Below are positions 5,592 through 63,157 of a stretch of DNA of 64,000 nt, in pieces. The position numbers and the translations under genes were made by a program. The stretch is from Candidatus Campbellbacteria bacterium (GTDB taxonomy: Bacteria; Patescibacteriota; Minisyncoccia; Phycocordibacterales; EsbW-18). Under the pieces are notes generated by a model. That model saw only the letters and a list, made by a program, of their open reading frames with translations. It did no database searches and was not told the origin of the DNA. The DNA is taken from contig JANLIT010000003.1 of the NCBI GenBank assembly GCA_024653945.1, positions 98,936 through 162,935 on the forward strand, written 5' to 3'. How positions within the stretch are numbered: position 1 is the first letter of the stretch; each line of letters begins with the position of its first letter.

Positions 5592-5876
5592 ATGATTGAG
5601 TACGAACAAAAAATAAAATATCTGGAGCTATTAACTCGTGGTCTTGCTCACCATCACCGCATTCGTACTCTTTTGCGATTAGATAGCATAACTGACCAGA
5701 CACTTGAAGAAATTGCTGAGTATCTCAATACTGACTACAAAAATGCCAGCCAACATGTGCAAAAAATGCATCGTGCAGGGCTTGTCTCAAAAAAATATCA
5801 AGGACACACTATTATCCACTCCCTTACAAACAAGGGAAGGGAGTTTCTTTTGTTCTATAATTCAATAGAATTATAG
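5592..5876 (+). CDS. ArsR/SmtB-family winged-helix transcriptional regulator
   Basis: 94-aa helix-turn-helix protein (LEEIAEYLNTDYKNASQHVQKMHRAGLV). Confidence 0.55.
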   Translation: MIEYEQKIKYLELLTRGLAHHHRIRTLLRLDSITDQTLEEIAEYLNTDYKNASQHVQKMHRAGLVSKKYQGHTIIHSLTNKGREFLLFYNSIEL

Positions 5877-5897: not shown

Positions 5898-6854
5898 TTA
5901 TTTTAAAAACTTTTGTATTACATCAAGTGCCTCACCGGCAGTTCGAGCATCCATGAGTTTGAGAAGAATTTTTTTGTCATATCCGTCACCCTGAAGATAT
6001 GATTTGAAGTGTTTCTTCATCAACGCAAAGGATTTCCTCTTGCCACATAATTCATCAAAAAGTTTTGTATGCTCGGCAAGAACAGTGAGACGCTCAGACA
6101 ACCCTGGCCGAGGTGAGTCAGACCCAAGCCATGGATTTCCAAAAATAGCACGACCAAACATCACTCCGTCAGGGCCGTACGTAATTACTTTTTCTCGCGC
6201 ATCGTTCATATCAACCACATCTCCATTCCCAATAATAAGCGTCTCGTGTTTGCTTTCCTTTTCAAACTCATCTCGAATTGCAACTGCTTGTGCAATAGTG
6301 TCCCACCGTGCTGGTACTTTTGACATTTCCTTTTTTGTGCGGGCATGAATGGTAATTGCATCAATGTGTGTTTCAAGAAGTGTCGGCAACCATGTCTCCA
6401 ATTCATTGGTTGTGTATCCTATGCGTGTTTTTACCGACACAGGAATATCTTTTGCCCCTTGTTTGAGAGCAAGAATAAGTTCTTGGGCAAGTTGTGATTC
6501 CTTCATAAGTGCGGCACCTGCGCCTTGCTTACACACACCATCATCAGGACACCCCATGTTGATATCAACACCATCAAACCCGAGCTCGCGTGCAAGCGCT
6601 CCAGCCTTTTCCATATACTCAGGCGTTGAAGTGAAAAATTGTGCAACGATTGGTCGCTCACCTTCTGAGTACTCAAGATCATGTACCAGCGCATCATATC
6701 CTCCACGGAATAACCCGTCTGCAGAAACAAACTCGGTCCACAAGACATCAAGTTTTCCATACTTCCCAATAATCCGCCGGAACGCGGGGTCAGTTACATC
6801 CGCCATTGGGGCAAGACAAAAGAATGGTTGTGGGAGTTTTTTCCAAAAAGACAT
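5898..6854 (-). CDS. tRNA-dihydrouridine synthase (Dus family)
   Basis: FFCLAPMADVTDPAFRRI; TIM-barrel flavin motifs; start set at internal Met (MSFWKK...); the upstream ORF extension lacks homology. Confidence 0.8.
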   Translation of the reverse strand: MSFWKKLPQPFFCLAPMADVTDPAFRRIIGKYGKLDVLWTEFVSADGLFRGGYDALVHDLEYSEGERPIVAQFFTSTPEYMEKAGALARELGFDGVDINMGCPDDGVCKQGAGAALMKESQLAQELILALKQGAKDIPVSVKTRIGYTTNELETWLPTLLETHIDAITIHARTKKEMSKVPARWDTIAQAVAIRDEFEKESKHETLIIGNGDVVDMNDAREKVITYGPDGVMFGRAIFGNPWLGSDSPRPGLSERLTVLAEHTKLFDELCGKRKSFALMKKHFKSYLQGDGYDKKILLKLMDARTAGEALDVIQKFLK

Positions 6855-22844: not shown

Positions 22845-23741
22845 CTAGTTTTTTCCAAGAAGTGCTCCGATTCTTTCGGAAACTGGCGGGTGAGTCAAAA
22901 ACAACTTTCTCCAGAAACCAATTTTTTTCTCGTGTCCTCCACCAAGCGGACTACTAATAAAAAGATGTGCTGTAGCTTTGTGTACTCGCTTCATGGGTTG
23001 TGTATATGAGGATATCTTCGAGAGCGCTCCTGCAAGCCCTTCTGGATAGCGCGTAAGCAATGCCCCCGATGCATCTGCTAGAAACTCACGTTTGCGTGAA
23101 ATAGCGAGCTGTATGCACAGACCTGCAATTGGCGTCAGAATAGCAAGTACAATGCCGGCAATAACAAAAAGTGCGTTTCCTCGATTGTCATCACCCCCTC
23201 GAATATGACGCGACGTACGCAAGAAAAAATCAGAGAGCAGACTTAAAAAACCAACAATAATCACAACAACTGTCGACAAAAGGATGTCCCAATTGCGTAT
23301 GTGTGAGAGTTCGTGGGCAATGACACCCTCAAGCTCTGATCTATCTAACATATGTAGCAACCCTGTTGTTACGGCAATTGTTGCATGCTCTGGATTTCGC
23401 CCAGTCGCAAATGCATTCGGAGCATCATCAGTAATCACGTAGATTTTTGGCATCGGAATACCTGCAGTAATGGAGAGATTTTCTGTAACGGTGTATAAAT
23501 CAAAAAACTCTTCACGTACTGCGGGGCGTGCACCAGACAGAGAAAGTGCCAATTTGTCGGAGTACCAATAGCTTCCTATATTCATCACCAAACTAAAAAT
23601 AACAGCCGCATACACAATTTCTGGTGCGCCATATACTTGTCCGAAAAACCAACCAACAACTACAATAATGCACAAAAAACCAACCATAAGAAGCCATGTT
23701 TTGGTAATATTATTTTCTTTATTGGAGTATAAGGAGCTCAT
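22845..23741 (-). CDS. htpX: Zinc metalloprotease HtpX (M48)
   Basis: HELSHIRNWD (HExxH); transmembrane topology; M48 length. Confidence 0.85.
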   Translation of the reverse strand: MSSLYSNKENNITKTWLLMVGFLCIIVVVGWFFGQVYGAPEIVYAAVIFSLVMNIGSYWYSDKLALSLSGARPAVREEFFDLYTVTENLSITAGIPMPKIYVITDDAPNAFATGRNPEHATIAVTTGLLHMLDRSELEGVIAHELSHIRNWDILLSTVVVIIVGFLSLLSDFFLRTSRHIRGGDDNRGNALFVIAGIVLAILTPIAGLCIQLAISRKREFLADASGALLTRYPEGLAGALSKISSYTQPMKRVHKATAHLFISSPLGGGHEKKIGFWRKLFLTHPPVSERIGALLGKN

Positions 23742-23748
23742 GTAAAGT

Positions 23749-23860
23749 ACGAAATCCGAATATCGAAACCCGAAATAATGTTTAATTCTCTAAATTCAAA
23801 AACTTTAAACATAAGAATTTGTTGATTTTTTCGAATTTCGTATTTCGAGTTTCGGATTTT
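23749..23860. repeat. Inverted-repeat element built from TTTCGR heptads, copy 1 (family with 62348-62469)
   Basis: Left arm GTACGAAATCCGAATATCGAAACCCGAAATAATG, AT-rich spacer, right arm TTTTCGAATTTCGTATTTCGAGTTTCGGATTTT (imperfect reverse complement); the left arm is ~88% identical to the ftsX-upstream copy; it fills the gap 8 nt upstream of the htpX ATG. Confidence 0.6.
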
Positions 23861-23863
23861 ATC

Positions 23864-24049
23864 TTAGCGTGGTTGATTTTCTGCCATGAGGTCACCCATT
23901 TGCGCAACCATTTCTTGATTTCTCATTTCAATTCTTTGTATCAATAAATATGCACGCCATGTCACAATCACCATCAACACAACAACAATAACCACAATAT
24001 ACCAAACCGAACTGACGTTTCGATTAAAATGTGAATAGACTGATTGCAT
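23864..24049 (-). CDS. Small single-transmembrane protein
   Basis: 61-aa ORF downstream of the NUDIX gene; stop codon embedded in the right arm of the repeat. Confidence 0.35.
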   Translation of the reverse strand: MQSVYSHFNRNVSSVWYIVVIVVVLMVIVTWRAYLLIQRIEMRNQEMVAQMGDLMAENQPR

Positions 24050-24057
24050 AGATAAAC

Positions 24058-24540
24058 CTACTTTGTACGCGTTTTTAAGATTGCATCAACCTCTTGTATT
24101 TCTTCAAAAATACCCGCAATAAGGTCAAGCTCACGCGCTTCAGTAAGATTCACCCATTTATACTCTACGGCATCTTCGTCAAGCTCAACATCTCCAGAAA
24201 GATAGGGTGCGTAGTAACTCAAGACCAACACAGGTATCCCATCGGGACGAATAAACGTCATATCAAGTAAATACTCAACTTTACCAACTTCCACACATAC
24301 TTCTTCTTGTAGTTCTCTTCTGAGAGCTTTTTCTACTGCTCCGTACCAACCCGCATTTCCGTGTGTCTGTGGCGTATGTATATAATCGTCTGTTTCCAGA
24401 CCACCCCCAGGAACGGTCCATTTGTTTGGATGCACCTTTTTAGTTGGACTTCGTTTTGTAACAAGATATTTTCTCTCAGTGTTATAGATAATACACGTAA
24501 TCGCAACACGGTGGAGTTCCTTATTGTGTATCTCAACCAT
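24058..24540 (-). CDS. NUDIX hydrolase
   Basis: Nudix box G..x5E..RELQEEVCVEV. Confidence 0.8.
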   Translation of the reverse strand: MVEIHNKELHRVAITCIIYNTERKYLVTKRSPTKKVHPNKWTVPGGGLETDDYIHTPQTHGNAGWYGAVEKALRRELQEEVCVEVGKVEYLLDMTFIRPDGIPVLVLSYYAPYLSGDVELDEDAVEYKWVNLTEARELDLIAGIFEEIQEVDAILKTRTK

Positions 24541-26801: not shown

Positions 26802-26825
26802 GGTATTGGGAAGCTCAAAATTCAA

Positions 26826-26897
26826 AGTCCAAAGCTCAAAAGTTTTTGAAGTTTAAAATTTTAGTTTTTTTTGGATTTTGTGCTTTGAGCTTTGTGT
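26826..26897 (-). other. groES-groEL intergenic inverted repeat (mRNA structure)
   Basis: Minus sense CAAAGCTCAAAG..CTTTTGAGCTTTGG complementary segments. Confidence 0.3.
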
Positions 26898-42657: not shown

Positions 42658-44157
42658 CTATTTTTCCAAATCAAGAATATCGTCAATACGAATTTTCTCC
42701 ACAAATTCGGGTACGTGAGACACTAACACCATCGCTCCTTCATACTTGTTGAGCGCTTCAGCAATAACAGGAATGTGACGGAAGTTGATATGGTTTGTGG
42801 GCTCGTCAAGAATGAGAAGTCCTGGTTTTTGAAGTACGAGTCGTGCAAATGCAACAAGTCCCTTCTGCCCCTCTGAAAGACTACCGATTTTACTTTGAAT
42901 AAGTTCTGCATTAATAAGAAATCCCGCAGCGGTTGCACGCATAGTTTCTTCTACACGTTCCTTCATCACGCTTCCAAGGGACTCATAGACAGTGTCTTCA
43001 AAATTGAGTGTTGAGAAATCCTGTCGATAGTATCCGACGGTTGCACCTTCTAAAATTTTTGAACCGTCCGCTGTCCCCTTGGCAATTGCTTCCAAAAGCG
43101 TGCTTTTACCAATACCATTCGGTCCTTTTAAGAGAAGGTGCCAATTTTTGCGCACGGTGACATTCGCCTTTCGTTCTACAAACTTGTGTGTTTTTGGACT
43201 CATCGTCTTAAACTTGGTAATCGTGAGGATATCTCCAACCAGCCCTTTTTGAAACGGAATAATAAACGGACGAATAGTTTTATCGTCTTTCCGTGTGTCC
43301 ACCTTACTTTCCTCAAGTTCTTCGGCTTCTTCACGCATACGCCTTGCAACTAAACGCATTTTTCCTCCTTTGTGTGCAAAAAAGTTTGCCTTGTCTTTGT
43401 TGTCTTGAATTTTTTTAGCAAGTTGTGCATTTTTTCGATTCTCTCGCTCCACTTGAGCAGCAATCTGCTCAACCACATCAAAATAGTTTCCAACGTACTG
43501 TTGCACTTTTTGAGTATAGATATCCAAGTACAACACAGCATCAGTAAATGCATTTAAAAATTCCGAGTCATGCGAAATAACCATCAGTGTTTTTTTATAC
43601 GCTCTCAAAAAATCAGTGAGGTGTTCAATACCCGCTTTATCCAAATTATTTGTCGGCTCATCAAGAAGAAGTAAATCTGGGTCTTGAATTAATGCAGACG
43701 CAAGAAGGAGCCGTGCCTGCTGACCTCCAGAAAAAGAACGTATGATTCGTTCGTGCATTTTTTCGTGCCCTTTCAAGTTCACCACCTCAAGCACATCATC
43801 AATCTTGGGATCAATGTTGTGAATTTTCCCAATATCTTTTCGCAAACCTGCTTGTACGGAATCTTCAAATGCTTTTACAAAAAAATCTCGCACCGTCAAA
43901 CTAAGTTCATCACGAGGAATAACTTGTCGAGCAATCGCAATTGTAAGTCCATTCACTCGAGACACCTCACCGTCTTCTGGCTCCACTATTCCTGTAATAA
44001 GCTTAAAAATAGTACTTTTTCCACCACCATTTTGTCCCATGATGGTCAATTTTGAATTTCGACGTATAGAGAAAGAAACCTCATCAAGTATGGGTTTTGT
44101 GGGCTCGTACGCAAAACTGAGCTCTTCGAAACGCAGTATTATTTCATCTCGGGACAC
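42658..44157 (-). CDS. ABC-F family ATPase (two ABC domains, no transmembrane domain)
   Basis: Two Walker A (GQNGGGKST, GPNGIGKST) and two signatures (LSGGQQ, LSEGQK) with an inter-domain linker; start uncertain (GTG assumed; the longest ORF reaches 44226). Confidence 0.8.
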   Translation of the reverse strand: MSRDEIILRFEELSFAYEPTKPILDEVSFSIRRNSKLTIMGQNGGGKSTIFKLITGIVEPEDGEVSRVNGLTIAIARQVIPRDELSLTVRDFFVKAFEDSVQAGLRKDIGKIHNIDPKIDDVLEVVNLKGHEKMHERIIRSFSGGQQARLLLASALIQDPDLLLLDEPTNNLDKAGIEHLTDFLRAYKKTLMVISHDSEFLNAFTDAVLYLDIYTQKVQQYVGNYFDVVEQIAAQVERENRKNAQLAKKIQDNKDKANFFAHKGGKMRLVARRMREEAEELEESKVDTRKDDKTIRPFIIPFQKGLVGDILTITKFKTMSPKTHKFVERKANVTVRKNWHLLLKGPNGIGKSTLLEAIAKGTADGSKILEGATVGYYRQDFSTLNFEDTVYESLGSVMKERVEETMRATAAGFLINAELIQSKIGSLSEGQKGLVAFARLVLQKPGLLILDEPTNHINFRHIPVIAEALNKYEGAMVLVSHVPEFVEKIRIDDILDLEK

Positions 44158-59735: not shown

Positions 59736-61400
59736 TTAGACGCTCTTAGTTTTTTTCAAGCGTCTTTTTGTTGCAGCTATAATAAAAGCACTGAATAGCG
59801 GGTGTGGGGACGTCGGCCGTGCTTTAAATTCTGGATGAAATTGTGTACCAAGAAAAAAAGGATGGACTGATTTTGGTAGTTCAACAATTTCCATGAGTTT
59901 TCCATCGGGGGAACGTCCAGAAAAAACAAGTCCCGCCCTCTCAAGTTCTGATATGTAGTCTAGGTTTACTTCATAGCGATGACGGTGTCGTTCAGAAATT
60001 TTTAATGTGGTATATGCACGAGCAGCAATACTTCCTTTTTGCAAATTCGCTTGATACGCACCCAATCGCATTGTTGCACCATAGTGCCCTGCTTTCAAAA
60101 GCTCCTTCTGCTCTGGCAAAATATCAATAACGGGATGTGTGGTGTTTTTAGCAATTTCTGTTGTGTGTGCGTCGTTCCATTTGAGAATATGTCTTGCTGA
60201 TTCTACAACAGCCAACTGCATTCCATAACATAAACCAAAAAACGGAATGTGGTGTTCCCGTACATACTTGATAACAGCGATTTTTCCCTCAACACCAGAG
60301 GAACCAAAACCTCCAGGTACGATAACACCGTCAAAAGAGCCCACTTTTCTTAATAATGAAACATCTTGTTCAAAATGTTTTGCATTTAACCACGTGAGCT
60401 TTGGTGTATATCCAAGCGTCCACGCCGATATTTTGATTGCCTCAATAACTGATATGTACGAATCAGCAAGAGTGAAGTCACCTGTATCAAAATACTTTCC
60501 AACAATAGCAATAGAAATTTCTTTTTTTGCGCGATTTTTTTTGTGCACGAACGTCTGCCAATCACGCAAGTCATTTTTCTTGTGGGACAACCCGAGATGT
60601 TTTAAGAGTAGATTGCCAATATGGTCCTTATCAAAATTCAAAGGAACATCATAAATACTTTTAACATCTGGTGCTGAAATAACGTGCGCCGGAGGAATCA
60701 TACATCCCGCAGCAAGCTTCTCTCGTCGCTTGGTGTCCATAACAACATCACTTCGCGCAATAATAAAATCTGCCTGTACACCGTATGAATTTAATGCCTG
60801 TGCAGCGATACGAGTAGGGCGTGTCTTCATTTCACCAATACTTTTTGGCATTGGTACGTAACTAACAAGAACAAAGACGACATCGTTGGGATGCTCAATT
60901 TTCATGACTCGGGCAGCTTCAATAAAAAGTGTATTTTGATAGTCACCGATTGTTCCACCAATCTCAACCACAGTGACATCAGACCGCCCATGCCGCTTTG
61001 CGTGGGTAATTTTGTCTGTTATTTCATTCACGATATCAGGCATTGCTTCAACACACTTCCCCCCATATCCAAGAGCACGTTCACGTGTTAATACGTTGTA
61101 GTACACCATACCACTCGTTACGTAATCCTCCGTGACAGCGTCAACTCCTAAAAAGCGTTCGTAGTTCCCCATGTCTTGGTCCGTTTCAAGTCCAGAATTA
61201 AGTACAAATGTTTCACCGTGTTCTGTTGGATTCATGGTGCCAGCATCAACGTTAAGATACGGGTCAACTTTCATAAGATTAACCCTATACCCTTTTCCTT
61301 GAAGGATTTTACCAATGGAGGCAGTGGTGATTCCTTTACCGATACCCGACATGACACCCCCGATAACAAAAATATATTTGTGTCGGTGACGGAGGGTCAT
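59736..61400 (-). CDS. pyrG: CTP synthase
   Basis: IFVIGGVMSGIGKG N-terminus; C-terminal GATase (GLCYGMQ). Confidence 0.95.
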   Translation of the reverse strand: MTLRHRHKYIFVIGGVMSGIGKGITTASIGKILQGKGYRVNLMKVDPYLNVDAGTMNPTEHGETFVLNSGLETDQDMGNYERFLGVDAVTEDYVTSGMVYYNVLTRERALGYGGKCVEAMPDIVNEITDKITHAKRHGRSDVTVVEIGGTIGDYQNTLFIEAARVMKIEHPNDVVFVLVSYVPMPKSIGEMKTRPTRIAAQALNSYGVQADFIIARSDVVMDTKRREKLAAGCMIPPAHVISAPDVKSIYDVPLNFDKDHIGNLLLKHLGLSHKKNDLRDWQTFVHKKNRAKKEISIAIVGKYFDTGDFTLADSYISVIEAIKISAWTLGYTPKLTWLNAKHFEQDVSLLRKVGSFDGVIVPGGFGSSGVEGKIAVIKYVREHHIPFFGLCYGMQLAVVESARHILKWNDAHTTEIAKNTTHPVIDILPEQKELLKAGHYGATMRLGAYQANLQKGSIAARAYTTLKISERHRHRYEVNLDYISELERAGLVFSGRSPDGKLMEIVELPKSVHPFFLGTQFHPEFKARPTSPHPLFSAFIIAATKRRLKKTKSV

Positions 61401-61406
61401 GGTGTG

Positions 61407-62333
61407 TTATGCACGAAGATACCGACGAACAGCGAGATAACTTGAGATTGCACCAAGAAAAATTCCAGCAGCAAGAATAATGAGAAACATCTCTCCAAAA
61501 TTGCTTACGTAATATTCAAACAAGTTCATTGCACCAAAAAATTCTTTGGTAAATGGCCCAATCCAGTACGTCAGAGGGTAAAAGAGTGCAAGGACAAGTA
61601 TTCCAGACACAATACCATACATAACACCCTCAACAACAAATGGTCCACGCACATACATATTTCCAGCACCGACAAGGCGCATAACTGAAATCTCTTCGCG
61701 TGCAGTGTAAATCGCAAGCCGAATAGTATTGAATGTAATAATGAGGGAGAGAACAATAAGAATCACACTGAGAGCAAGTCCGAGTCGTTCTGCTGAATTA
61801 ATGATATTACTTAATTTTTCTATAACCACCTTATTATCGTTATAGTTTACTTTTTGAATGATAACATTATTACTACTTCCGAGAGATGCTGGACTATCTA
61901 AGAACGCCGCGACAGCCTCATATTGAGATGTCTCCTTTGCGCGAATATTAAATACCGCACCAAGTGGGTTATCATCCAACTCTTGAAGTGCGCCGAGAAT
62001 TGTTTGGTCGTCTTTGTGTCGCTCCTGAAATGCTACAAGAGCTTGTTCGCGTGTAACATACCCAACGGTTGCCACCTCAGGAAGTGCTTCAAGAGCTCCT
62101 TTAAGCTTTAAAATATCGGTCTCTGTGGCGTCCGTCAAAAAGTACACATTCACATCAACTTTTTCTTTCAATTGCAGCAGTGATGCATTCAATATTGCTC
62201 CAGAAAAAATAACTGCTCCGAGAGTAAACAGTGTTACCACCATAATCAGGACAGAGGCGAGCGACACAAAACCGTTGCGCCAAAAATTCACAAATCCCGC
62301 TTTCAGTATTCTTTTTGTGTTAATCCAAAACAT
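61407..62333 (-). CDS. ftsX: Cell division permease FtsX
   Basis: 4-transmembrane FtsX topology with periplasmic loop; downstream of ftsE; start set at ATG 62333. Confidence 0.8.
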   Translation of the reverse strand: MFWINTKRILKAGFVNFWRNGFVSLASVLIMVVTLFTLGAVIFSGAILNASLLQLKEKVDVNVYFLTDATETDILKLKGALEALPEVATVGYVTREQALVAFQERHKDDQTILGALQELDDNPLGAVFNIRAKETSQYEAVAAFLDSPASLGSSNNVIIQKVNYNDNKVVIEKLSNIINSAERLGLALSVILIVLSLIITFNTIRLAIYTAREEISVMRLVGAGNMYVRGPFVVEGVMYGIVSGILVLALFYPLTYWIGPFTKEFFGAMNLFEYYVSNFGEMFLIILAAGIFLGAISSYLAVRRYLRA

Positions 62334-62347
62334 AATAGTTACATTAA

Positions 62348-62469
62348 GCACGAAATCCGAATGTCGAAATCCGAAATAATATCTAATTTTTAAATTTAAA
62401 ATTTTTAAACATTTGGATATTCATACATTTTTATTTGTTTCGATTTTCGTGCTTCGATATTCGAATTTT
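62348..62469. repeat. Inverted-repeat element built from TTTCGR heptads, copy 2 (between ftsE and ftsX)
   Basis: Left arm GCACGAAATCCGAATGTCGAAATCCGAAATAATA, right arm TTTCGATTTTCGTGCTTCGATATTCGAATTTT; the right arm overlaps the ftsE stop; the left arm ends 15 nt before the ftsX ATG. Confidence 0.6.
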
Positions 62470-63157
62470 ATAAGACGTACCTTCCCTCCTTATCATCACG
62501 TACCACACGCCCTTTCTCCATTGTAATAACGCGCTTACCCAAACTATCAATAATGCCTTTGTTGTGTGTCGTCAAAAGAACTGTCGTTCCTAAATCATTA
62601 ATCTTTTTCAAAATCTGAACAACTTCATACGAGTTGAGCGGGTCGAGGTTTCCTGTTGGTTCATCTGCCACAAGCACGTCTGGTTGATTCACAATTGCCC
62701 GTGCAATGGCAAGGCGTTGTTTTTCTCCTCCGGACATTTGATTAGGAAATTTCCATGCTTTATCAAGAAGTCCAACGAGTTCAAGTGCGTACGGCACATC
62801 GCTCTCAATATCTACATCATTACGTCCTGCAGCTTCCATTGCAAATGCAATATTTTCAAATGCTGTTTTGTACGGAAGGAGACGAAAATCCTGAAAAATC
62901 ATTCCTATTTTACGTCGTAGGGCACTAATCTCACGACGAGACAACGAATGAATATCAACGTTTCCGAAGGAAACTGATCCCCCTGTTGGACGTTCTTCGG
63001 CAAGCAAAAGTTTGAGAAGCGTCGTCTTTCCCGCCCCCGAGTGTCCCACAATAGAAACAAATTCGCTTGGCTCTATGGTAAAAGTTACCTCTTGGAGTGC
63101 CTTTGAGTCATCCGAGTATATTTTACTAACATTATCAAATGAAATCATGTGCATCAT
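62468..63157 (-). CDS. ftsE: Cell division ATP-binding protein FtsE
   Basis: Walker A GHSGAGKTT; signature LSGGEKQR; Walker B. Confidence 0.9.
   Translation of the reverse strand: MMHMISFDNVSKIYSDDSKALQEVTFTIEPSEFVSIVGHSGAGKTTLLKLLLAEERPTGGSVSFGNVDIHSLSRREISALRRKIGMIFQDFRLLPYKTAFENIAFAMEAAGRNDVDIESDVPYALELVGLLDKAWKFPNQMSGGEKQRLAIARAIVNQPDVLVADEPTGNLDPLNSYEVVQILKKINDLGTTVLLTTHNKGIIDSLGKRVITMEKGRVVRDDKEGRYVL

Follow-up and report, generated by a model that had tools for sequence, protein, structure and literature searches.

Intervening sequences (IVSs) in bacterial rRNA genes have been characterized as selfish elements: their terminal inverted repeats pair into a stem, at which RNase III cuts. 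Some of them carry an open reading frame (ORF) of the PF05635 family, and the cited account leaves their origin, mobility and function unresolved (PMC4990558). The rRNA insertions of the Candidate Phyla Radiation (CPR) also carry this ORF (preprint 10.1101/2024.02.27.582315). In Xanthomonas, according to the parts of the report cited here, convergent GGGAATC heptamer arrays form about 70 pairs, at an average distance of 28 nt from the ORF upstream; the genes on either side are mostly co-directional and rarely divergent, and the function is given as unknown; similar heptamers occur in Nostoc, and heptameric repeats in general are over-represented in bacteria, slippage having been proposed as the cause (PMC4692102). 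Here we describe a hairpin element with heptad-repeat arms in a stretch of 64,000 nt from a Candidatus Campbellbacteria bacterium (assembly GCA_024653945.1, contig JANLIT010000003.1, positions 98,936 to 162,935; hereafter the window). Three copies of 85-126 bp with inverted arms occupy the gaps upstream of htpX, ftsX and groEL, and they are insertions of a heptad-armed hairpin family that crosses phyla. We consider it probable (roughly 0.7) that the element represents a selfish, IVS-like hairpin insertion without a gene, a member of this family from which the PF05635 gene is missing.

Copy 1 (23745..23860, minus strand) fills the 122-nt gap between the stop codon of a 61-aa ORF (23866-23864) and the htpX ATG (23741-23739). 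On the plus strand its start-proximal arm (23750..23777; a match of 36 bits to the nhmmer arm model) reads CGAAATC CGAATAT CGAAACC CGAAATA, equivalent to TATTTCG GGTTTCG ATATTCG GATTTCG on the mRNA strand. An AT-rich spacer or loop of 51 nt, to which no strand is assigned (23778..23828), separates it from the stop-proximal arm TTTCGAA TTTCGTA TTTCGAG TTTCGGA TTTT (23829..23860, plus strand; 29 bits). From stop to start codon the mRNA strand of copy 1 runs TAA GAT AAAATC, CGAAACT CGAAATA CGAAATT CGAAAAA, the 51-nt spacer, TTTCGGG TTTCGAT ATTCGGA TTTCGTA, and CTTTAC ATG of htpX. Copy 2 (62345..62470, minus strand) fills the gap from the abutting ftsE stop codon (62470-62468) to the ftsX ATG (62333-62331). 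Its arms, both recognized by the arm model, read on the plus strand CGAAATC CGAATGT CGAAATC CGAAATA (start-proximal, 62351..62378) and TTTCGAT TTTCGTG CTTCGAT ATTCGAA TT (stop-proximal, 62438..62467), and its mRNA strand runs TAA AATT, CGAATAT CGAAGCA CGAAAAT CGAAACA, a spacer, TTTCGGA TTTCGAC ATTCGGA TTTCGTG, and CTTAATGTAACTATT ATG of ftsX.

Both copies, about 115-125 bp each, follow one plan, in which an AT-rich spacer parts four CGAAANN heptads from four inverted ones. The inverted arms extend over 25 nt with 84% complementarity and 58 nt between them in copy 1 and over 16-19 nt with 74-88% complementarity in copy 2, while the two start-proximal arms are identical at 26 of 28 positions. 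The window holds two matches to the arm consensus CGAAATCCGAATRTCGAAAYCCGAAATA, at 23750-23777 and at 62351-62378, where shuffles predict 0, and all eight matches of the three-heptad pattern TTCGNNNTTCGNNNTTCG (0.02 expected) fall within these copies; a single two-heptad match lies elsewhere in the window, at 43163. The original prediction, which had placed two heptad-armed copies between co-directional minus-strand genes, was right as to coordinates, arms, spacer and neighbours. It also had one arm overlapping the upstream stop codon, which is not so in copy 1, where the TAA sits 3 nt before the element; the TAA of copy 2 directly abuts AATTCGAA. The other arm was said to end 8-15 nt before the downstream start, as is true for htpX (8 nt) and not for ftsX (17 nt). 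Missing from that description was a third copy (26813..26897, minus strand) between the groES stop codon (26900-26898) and the groEL ATG (26801), which raises the number of copies in the 64 kb to three. Its heptads are of a variant CAAA/TTTG type in which, compared with the CGAA/TTCG type, a G:C pair is swapped for A:T in both arms.

In Campbellbacteria the insertion is polymorphic at all three sites. Relatives were compared at loci L121/L122 (CP064977.1), L123/L124 and L125 for ftsE-ftsX and at L148, L149 and L150 for htpX and groES-groEL. Between ftsE and ftsX the site is filled in the window and, by a diverged copy in a 114-nt gap, in L121/L122 (FtsX 86% identical); it is empty in L123/L124 (87%, 26-nt gap) and in L125 (80%, 70 unrelated nt). 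Between the 61-aa ORF and htpX, the window is filled and L150 (84%) keeps a decayed TTTG-type remnant of ~70 nt that no longer folds, while L148 (88%, 20-nt gap) and L149 (86%, 16-nt gap) are empty. The groES-groEL gap holds the variant type in the window and the canonical CGAAA type in L150, and is a 9-nt empty gap in both L149 (from the sequence) and L148 (from gene coordinates). The flanking stop and start codons stand in the same places with or without the element. Copies 1 and 2, which have part of the loop in common, are more alike than copy 2 and its positional counterpart in L121. Because the sites are polymorphic, the codons unmoved and the window copies closer to each other than to that counterpart, we are dealing with an insertion-type repeat family and not with a conserved regulator. 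The comparative search for orthologous gaps without the element, proposed along with the original prediction, has thus turned up empty sites at htpX, ftsE-ftsX and groES-groEL. We also observed that the two subtypes are exchanged in L150 relative to the window, with the canonical type at the groEL site and the variant type at the htpX site.

Short ORFs run through some copies. One of 24 codons (MFKVFEFRELNIISGFDIRISYFT; 23812-23738, minus strand) begins in the loop of copy 1, crosses the start-proximal arm and ends in a TGA overlapping the htpX ATG (ATGA); copy 2 and the groEL element of L150 have short loop ORFs with an ATGTTT start too. They may be due to chance or be a coupling device, and the 24 codons, the largest ORF in the window copies, are of chance size.

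The family was studied in 296 sequences, made up of 295 fetched loci and the window. A scan of one genome per species with CGAAANNCGAANNNCGAAANNCGAAA gave at least 120 loci, with matches among them in Acidobacteriota, Planctomycetota, Verrucomicrobiota, Bacteroidota, Desulfobacterota and other Deltaproteobacteria, Omnitrophota, Patescibacteria and more; metagenomes were scanned with one arm variant, the match count being a lower bound. The motif is present on 22 IMG/VR contigs, and a whole-element search of the PLSDB plasmids gave no match. Many loci share the order CGAA array, spacer, TTCG array, with 83-151 nt between the arrays, and the arm consensus of the family is (T)AAATY CGAAATY CGAA(TAT/GCA/TAC) CGAAATC CGAAACA AAT TCAAAAT GACCAAAA. 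Applied to the loci gathered by both scans, the nhmmer arm model found 425 arms and at least 133 full elements, whose median length is 145 bp. For 16 further arms the partner would fall past the contig end, as expected because repeats break assemblies.

Gene context, taken from crude ORF calls around the family elements, reveals that the elements favour stop codons and the 3′ ends of genes. A neighbouring gene turns its 3′ end to the element in 115 cases and its 5′ end in 54, and the flanking gene pairs are convergent 17 times, divergent 6 times and co-directional 28 times. For 21 of the 115 (18%) the first CGAA follows the end of a stop codon at a distance of 3-5 nt, a TAA stop coinciding with the terminal TAA that belongs to the element. 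Orientation with respect to transcription is unbiased (about 27 versus 28), a smaller first sample having hinted that the GCA arm lies upstream. Own arms pair no better than swapped ones (−36.2 versus −38.0 kcal/mol), and in many elements TAT in one arm stands opposite GCA in the other. Given the unbiased orientation, the equal pairing of swapped arms and these TAT/GCA oppositions, the arms track the family consensus without pairwise co-evolution. Within the heptads CGAA forms a conserved core, while the other three positions vary and do not complement one another across the two arms. Folded in the sense direction, the elements gain 2.5 kcal/mol in stability over the antisense fold (p = 0.002), a difference that a transcription-linked C-to-T bias could explain and that depends on the crude gene calls. 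As side observations, some arms are expanded into pure arrays, with (TTCGGAT)7, a CATCGGA-type octamer run and at least 16 heptads (L019 3841-3972; L079 3005-3116; L054 3-84), the appearance of which shows slippage within arms, and in a metagenome-assembled genome of Candidatus Angelobacter (L036) a solo arm (5791-5820) and a full element (6708-6826) lie in successive gaps of a hemA/ccsA-like operon, one more case of insertion where operon genes meet. Literature searches with the literal element sequence returned only unrelated primers, and a search for transposable elements of the miniature inverted-repeat type (MITEs) in CPR found nothing specific.

Three arm pairs are spaced 0.3-6 kb apart. 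One consists of the separate arms around the ccsA-like gene of L036; in the other two, L258 and L221, the arms enclose ~470 bp with an ORF of ~121 aa, frameshifted in L221. The 121-aa ORF belongs to PF05635 (23S rRNA intervening-sequence protein, E 5e-13) and TIGR02436 (four helix bundle protein, E 1e-18), and at three more loci a PF05635-type gene adjoins an arm. PF05635 was the sole coding cargo found, no transposase being seen between arms among the 296 sequences. The protein has at least 7,998 homologues at E ≤ 1e-10; the best 120 of these are 74-84% identical and their named sources are CPR lineages and Scalindua, which may be taken as a sign of horizontal spread of the gene. All four of the independent close homologues that were fetched (Curtissbacteria, Levybacteria, Scalindua and one JGI contig) lie between neighbouring genes and have canonical arms. 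The cassettes have the layout aaatY(CGAAnnn)4 ... CGAAACAA(A/T)A(C/T)CAA ATG - ORF - TAG TTTTGAAnATTT ... ATTTGTTTCGGATTTCGATATTCGAATTTCGGATTT.

When the ends of the PF05635 cassettes were aligned with the window copies, L121 and the groEL element of L150, these gene-less elements matched the cassettes at either end and left the ORF as one gap. On its mRNA strand copy 2 retains CGAAACAAATAAAAATG, which is the start-codon context of the cassettes, as well as their post-stop segment AAAATTAGATATT. The start-proximal half of the copy 1 loop, common to copy 2, aligns just downstream of the cassette stop codon. Judged by this alignment, the window copies are homologous to both ends of PF05635 cassettes. 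The simplest reading would be loss of the gene from a cassette, by analogy with MITEs derived from insertion sequence (IS) elements, with capture of a gene by a hairpin as the alternative direction.

Inverted period-7 arrays flank PF05635 genes in general. Among 16 such genes (32 flanks), ten of them on plasmids of cultured cyanobacteria, Bacteroidota and Chloroflexota, the best period is 7 in 29 of 32 flanks and flank-to-flank pairing beats shuffles in every case (16/16). By tblastn, genes for a 'four helix bundle protein' occur on 21 plasmids of cultured bacteria. The repeat unit is ~7 nt in nine of the ten examined, most of which have visibly inverted flanks with a lineage-specific unit; in the tenth, from Pseudanabaena, the repeats are more complex. 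Heptamer arms accompany the plasmid genes of Nostoc and Aulosira, with (TTCAAAA)n / (TTTTGAA)n flanks, of Nostoc punctiforme, with (CAATTCG)n / (TTGCGAA)n, of Dolichospermum, with (TAATTCG)n / (TTACGAA)n, and of Planktothrix, with ATCGTAA / CGATTTA types; Chlorohelix has (ATGAAGG)n / (TTCATnn)n and Chondrinema ACAGT-type units. Several of these heptamer-armed genes are embedded in defence and transporter operons of cultured cyanobacteria, Chloroflexota and Bacteroidota. In L272 and L276 the gene lies near cas1/cas2, wedged between them; in L274, L277 and L279 it follows a helicase gene, and the gene that comes next encodes an N-6 DNA methylase in L274 and lacks an annotation in L277 and L279; and in L280 it stands between an RND adaptor and a permease. 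The presence of the PF05635 family inside cas operons has been remarked on earlier (PMC3936711). In the open-access literature we found no statement that links PF05635 to heptamer arms, and curated family descriptions may mention one.

The resemblance to IVSs with an S23p/PF05635 ORF, as in Leptospira and Coxiella burnetii, lies in the inverted repeats that form a long stem and bound the insertion, in a ~120-aa PF05635 four-helix-bundle ORF in the loop (of family members, not of the window copies), and in a sporadic, polymorphic distribution that suggests horizontal spread, ORF-less and ORF-bearing versions coexisting. The window copies differ in lying in gaps between protein-coding cistrons, not in rRNA helices, and the arms of the family are 7-nt repeats with a cross-phylum sequence, whereas the cited portion of the Coxiella paper describes none in the IVS stem (PMC4990558). 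The window copies do not qualify as a true rRNA IVS: the long stem is there, but neither an rRNA-helix location nor, in the window copies, the loop ORF that relatives have. With the Xanthomonas GGGAATC arrays and the cyanobacterial heptamers (short tandemly repeated repetitive sequences, STRRs; GGGGAYT), as far as the cited parts of that report describe them, the family shares the arrangement of tandem 7-nt units as two converging arrays, close to the 3′ end of the ORF upstream, and the same genomic distribution, mostly co-directional and rarely divergent (PMC4692102). It differs in the unit, CGAAATC, which is not G-rich and has no G-quadruplex potential, in its conserved non-repeat parts and in the link with PF05635. 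The distribution is thus that of the heptamer pairs and the cargo that of IVSs, in a family for which the 296 sequences showed neither the location of an IVS nor the transposase-bearing parent of a MITE.

Correia/NEMIS, ERIC and RUP elements are similar in their 100-170 bp, inverted arms, lack of an ORF, dispersal beside and between genes, polymorphism and TA ends. They are co-transcribed as hairpins, as the window copies would be, and RNase processing is known for Correia and ERIC elements. They are confined to one genus or family and stem from transposase-encoding IS elements, whereas the present family reaches across phyla, its arms have a period of seven and PF05635 is the only coding relative it has. 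Avd, the accessory protein of diversity-generating retroelements (DGRs), belongs to the same PF05635 four-helix-bundle family as the cargo protein of the full-length relatives; no reverse transcriptase, template repeat or variable repeat lies beside the examined cassettes, and the window copies encode no protein. Other candidates were discarded. Repetitive extragenic palindromes (REPs) and bacterial interspersed mosaic elements (BIMEs) are GC-rich palindromes of 20-40 bp with a GTAG or CGTC head, which the AT-rich heptad arms lack. As to REP-associated tyrosine transposases (RAYTs), the cargo was inspected in the two ~470-bp arm-flanked segments, both PF05635, with no RAYT-specific search. Integron attC sites do not fit, the ends reading AAATYCGAA...TTCGRATTT and not RYYYAAC/GTTRRRY, with core genes on either side, and the defining motifs of CsrA-type GGA sites, Spo0A boxes and Mu or Tn3 ends are absent.

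The arms of copies 1 and 2 are predicted to form long imperfect hairpins on either strand (∆G −26 to −33 kcal/mol), with −30.3 kcal/mol (z −3.6) for copy 1 and −27.2 kcal/mol (z −2.7) for copy 2; the third copy has a fold of −18.9 kcal/mol (z −4.2). The original prediction of a long imperfect mRNA hairpin is thereby supported (z −2.7 to −4.2 overall), whereas its extension, that the hairpin sequesters the translation initiation region of the downstream gene, is not supported: the htpX and ftsX AUGs lie outside the stem, 8 and 17 nt past the arms. A Shine–Dalgarno-like motif precedes only three of 64 long ORFs in the window and neither htpX nor ftsX, and since such sites are almost absent there is nothing to sequester at these two genes. 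It is very improbable, then, that the element acts as an RNA thermometer or translational hairpin whose paired arms mask the htpX initiation region when cool and melt upon heat shock. Such a role would suit a stable predicted hairpin that ends 8 nt ahead of the htpX AUG and the variant copy that also precedes groEL, as well as the computed unpaired probability of htpX AUG..+12, which at 30 °C is 0.39 and climbs to 0.64 at 45 °C. The comparison of 30 and 45 °C asked for along with the original prediction hence gave a change at htpX and none at the ftsX start, and in silico melting between 20 and 55 °C was gradual. Moreover, the closest htpX and groEL orthologous gaps are without the element, which is found before ftsX and in unrelated operons of many phyla as well. 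In the window only tRNAs pass the Rfam gathering score, and at permissive E-values (best 0.2-10) the element matched unrelated miRNA models. A ROSE- or fourU-type thermometer was rejected on the same grounds, as neither Shine–Dalgarno or start sequestration nor conservation at the heat-shock orthologues (L148, 88% identity; L149, 86%) was found.

Three further explanations deserve consideration. A classical MITE moved by a transposase, for example an IS630/Tc1-like one that targets TA, with the PF05635 gene as an occasional passenger, is unlikely in our view. The element does resemble a MITE in being small, free of ORFs, bounded by inverted arms, present in multiple dispersed copies, often at contig ends, and polymorphic for presence or absence; about half of the arms are preceded by TA or TAA, often at both ends, so that filled sites can be read as TA[element]TA. 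The TA is not universal, however, and being palindromic it may be part of the inverted repeat. No transposase-bearing parent between the same ends was seen in the 296 sequences, and the presence of arms at four out of four independent close PF05635 homologues speaks against passenger status. The miniature mobile element that the original prediction had entertained therefore survives in its polymorphism at three sites, many dispersed copies, inverted arms and lack of an ORF, but not in its parentage, the relatives carrying PF05635 in place of a transposase. We think it quite unlikely that the 4+4 heptads are protein-binding arrays that serve as an operator or assembly site and act on the genes to either side, with an omega-like ribbon-helix-helix protein or a PF05635 protein as candidates. 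The plasmid omega protein, itself of the ribbon-helix-helix type, binds 7-bp repeats that adjoin one another, and bAvd of DGRs forms a pentamer. A conserved CGAA core with variable positions that are not complementary, own arms that pair no better than swapped ones, and four to five heptads per arm set beside the five chains of PDB 2RLD, the only solved PF05635 homologue found, would all agree with such arrays. Against them stand the lack of a promoter-like site in the element (no sigma-70-like promoter in copies 1 and 2 by consensus scan), the insertion polymorphism at orthologous sites, the preference for gene 3′ ends and for the space between convergent genes, and flanking genes that are unrelated across genomes; the tandem-site operator listed in the original prediction is accordingly unlikely. 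Finally, polymerase slippage might have made the heptamer arrays in place as local simple-sequence repeats, with no insertion from elsewhere. Pure (CGAAATC)n arrays and expanded arms do exist (L019, L079, L054), and slippage has been proposed for the over-represented bacterial heptamers in the cited part of the survey (PMC4692102). We regard it as highly improbable here, as the whole 85-125-bp unit is either present or absent at orthologous sites, and the non-repetitive CGAAACAAAT, the loop ends and the post-stop segment are common to copies of different phyla and to PF05635 cassettes.

Several points weigh against the view that the element is a selfish, IVS-like hairpin that lacks its PF05635 gene. 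No rRNA motifs were found in the 296 sequences, so this subfamily was not seen as a true rRNA IVS. The two arms of one element pair no better with each other than with those of another element, which gives no sign that the hairpin is under selection copy by copy. The target-site duplication is ambiguous, TA or TAA flanking about half of the arms and possibly being part of the inverted repeat, and empty and filled sites are too diverged to align. The relationship may have run in either direction, as gene loss or as gene capture; neither the window nor the fetched Campbellbacteria loci hold a PF05635 gene that could be a trans-acting partner; and no mobility enzyme was found, PF05635 not being a known transposase. 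Lastly, groEL and htpX, which adjoin two of the three window copies, are heat-shock genes, and this leaves room for a secondary regulatory effect; the expression of these genes may be so affected, though no result requires it.

A selfish insertion into operon gaps would work as follows. The element is probably tolerated, in that it lands at or after a stop codon, folds on itself and leaves the next start region free, and it is probably co-transcribed with the operon to give a predicted imperfect stem of ~30-35 bp in the mRNA. By analogy with rRNA IVSs, Correia and ERIC elements, this stem might conceivably serve as a substrate of RNase III or as a barrier to exonucleases, and because it would do so the stability of upstream and downstream cistrons could at most be uncoupled, without temperature sensing. 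The heptads might also be contact sites for an oligomeric PF05635 protein, a speculative step. A wider proposal, which we hold to be doubtful, is that the heptad arms are recognition or assembly sites of an oligomeric, Avd-like PF05635 protein, that arm-gene-arm cassettes form an unrecognised cross-phylum class of mobile elements from which rRNA IVSs, the cyanobacterial STRR-type heptamers and the Xanthomonas pairs derive, and that gene-less copies are mobilised or maintained in trans.

As to the genes around the copies, that downstream of copy 1 encodes an htpX-like M48 peptidase (22845..23741, minus strand; Pfam PF01435, Peptidase_M48, E 2e-30), and the conserved 61-aa ORF upstream of it (23864..24049, minus strand) has a 61-aa counterpart at the same position in L148 and L149. 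Copy 2 is followed by ftsX (61407..62333, minus strand; Pfam FtsX_ECD and FtsX) and preceded by ftsE, which encodes an ABC ATPase (62468..63157, minus strand; Pfam ABC_tran, E 2.4e-36). The FtsX and HtpX of the window are 100% identical to Candidatus Campbellbacteria proteins. No intrinsic terminator was found by scan in copies 1 and 2, and no RNase III signature was found in the window, a 64-kb sample being uninformative on this point. A TATAAT-like hexamer lies 7-12 nt ahead of the ATG in many window genes, suggesting that Campbellbacteria mRNAs may be leaderless or have very short leaders. The neighbourhoods vary as well. A NUDIX gene (24058-24540, minus strand) stands between LemA and the 61-aa ORF in the window and is absent from the otherwise syntenic L148, L149 and L150, where LemA is directly followed by the 61-aa ORF. 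The CTP synthase gene pyrG (59736-61400, minus strand) lies between ftsX and a 178-aa gene in the window, while in L121-L124 ftsX is directly followed by a 178-aa Cob_adeno_trans gene; pyrG appears to have been inserted or rearranged in the window relative to these loci.

The origin and mobility of rRNA IVSs and the role of their four-helix-bundle protein have been open since the early 1990s, as the cited sections of the Coxiella paper recount (PMC4990558), and so, by the cited part of the heptamer survey, has the meaning of over-represented intergenic heptamers (PMC4692102); the present finding brings these two questions together. In many phyla a single conserved design of arms encloses the PF05635 gene, the form without the gene being far commoner. 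In the minimal genomes of CPR bacteria it is found as insertions into operon gaps, where empty and filled sites can be compared directly. Hairpins of this kind should not be taken in annotation for gene-specific regulators such as thermometers. The arms, the protein and the polymorphic sites provide concrete substrates for the questions of binding, RNase III processing and mobility.

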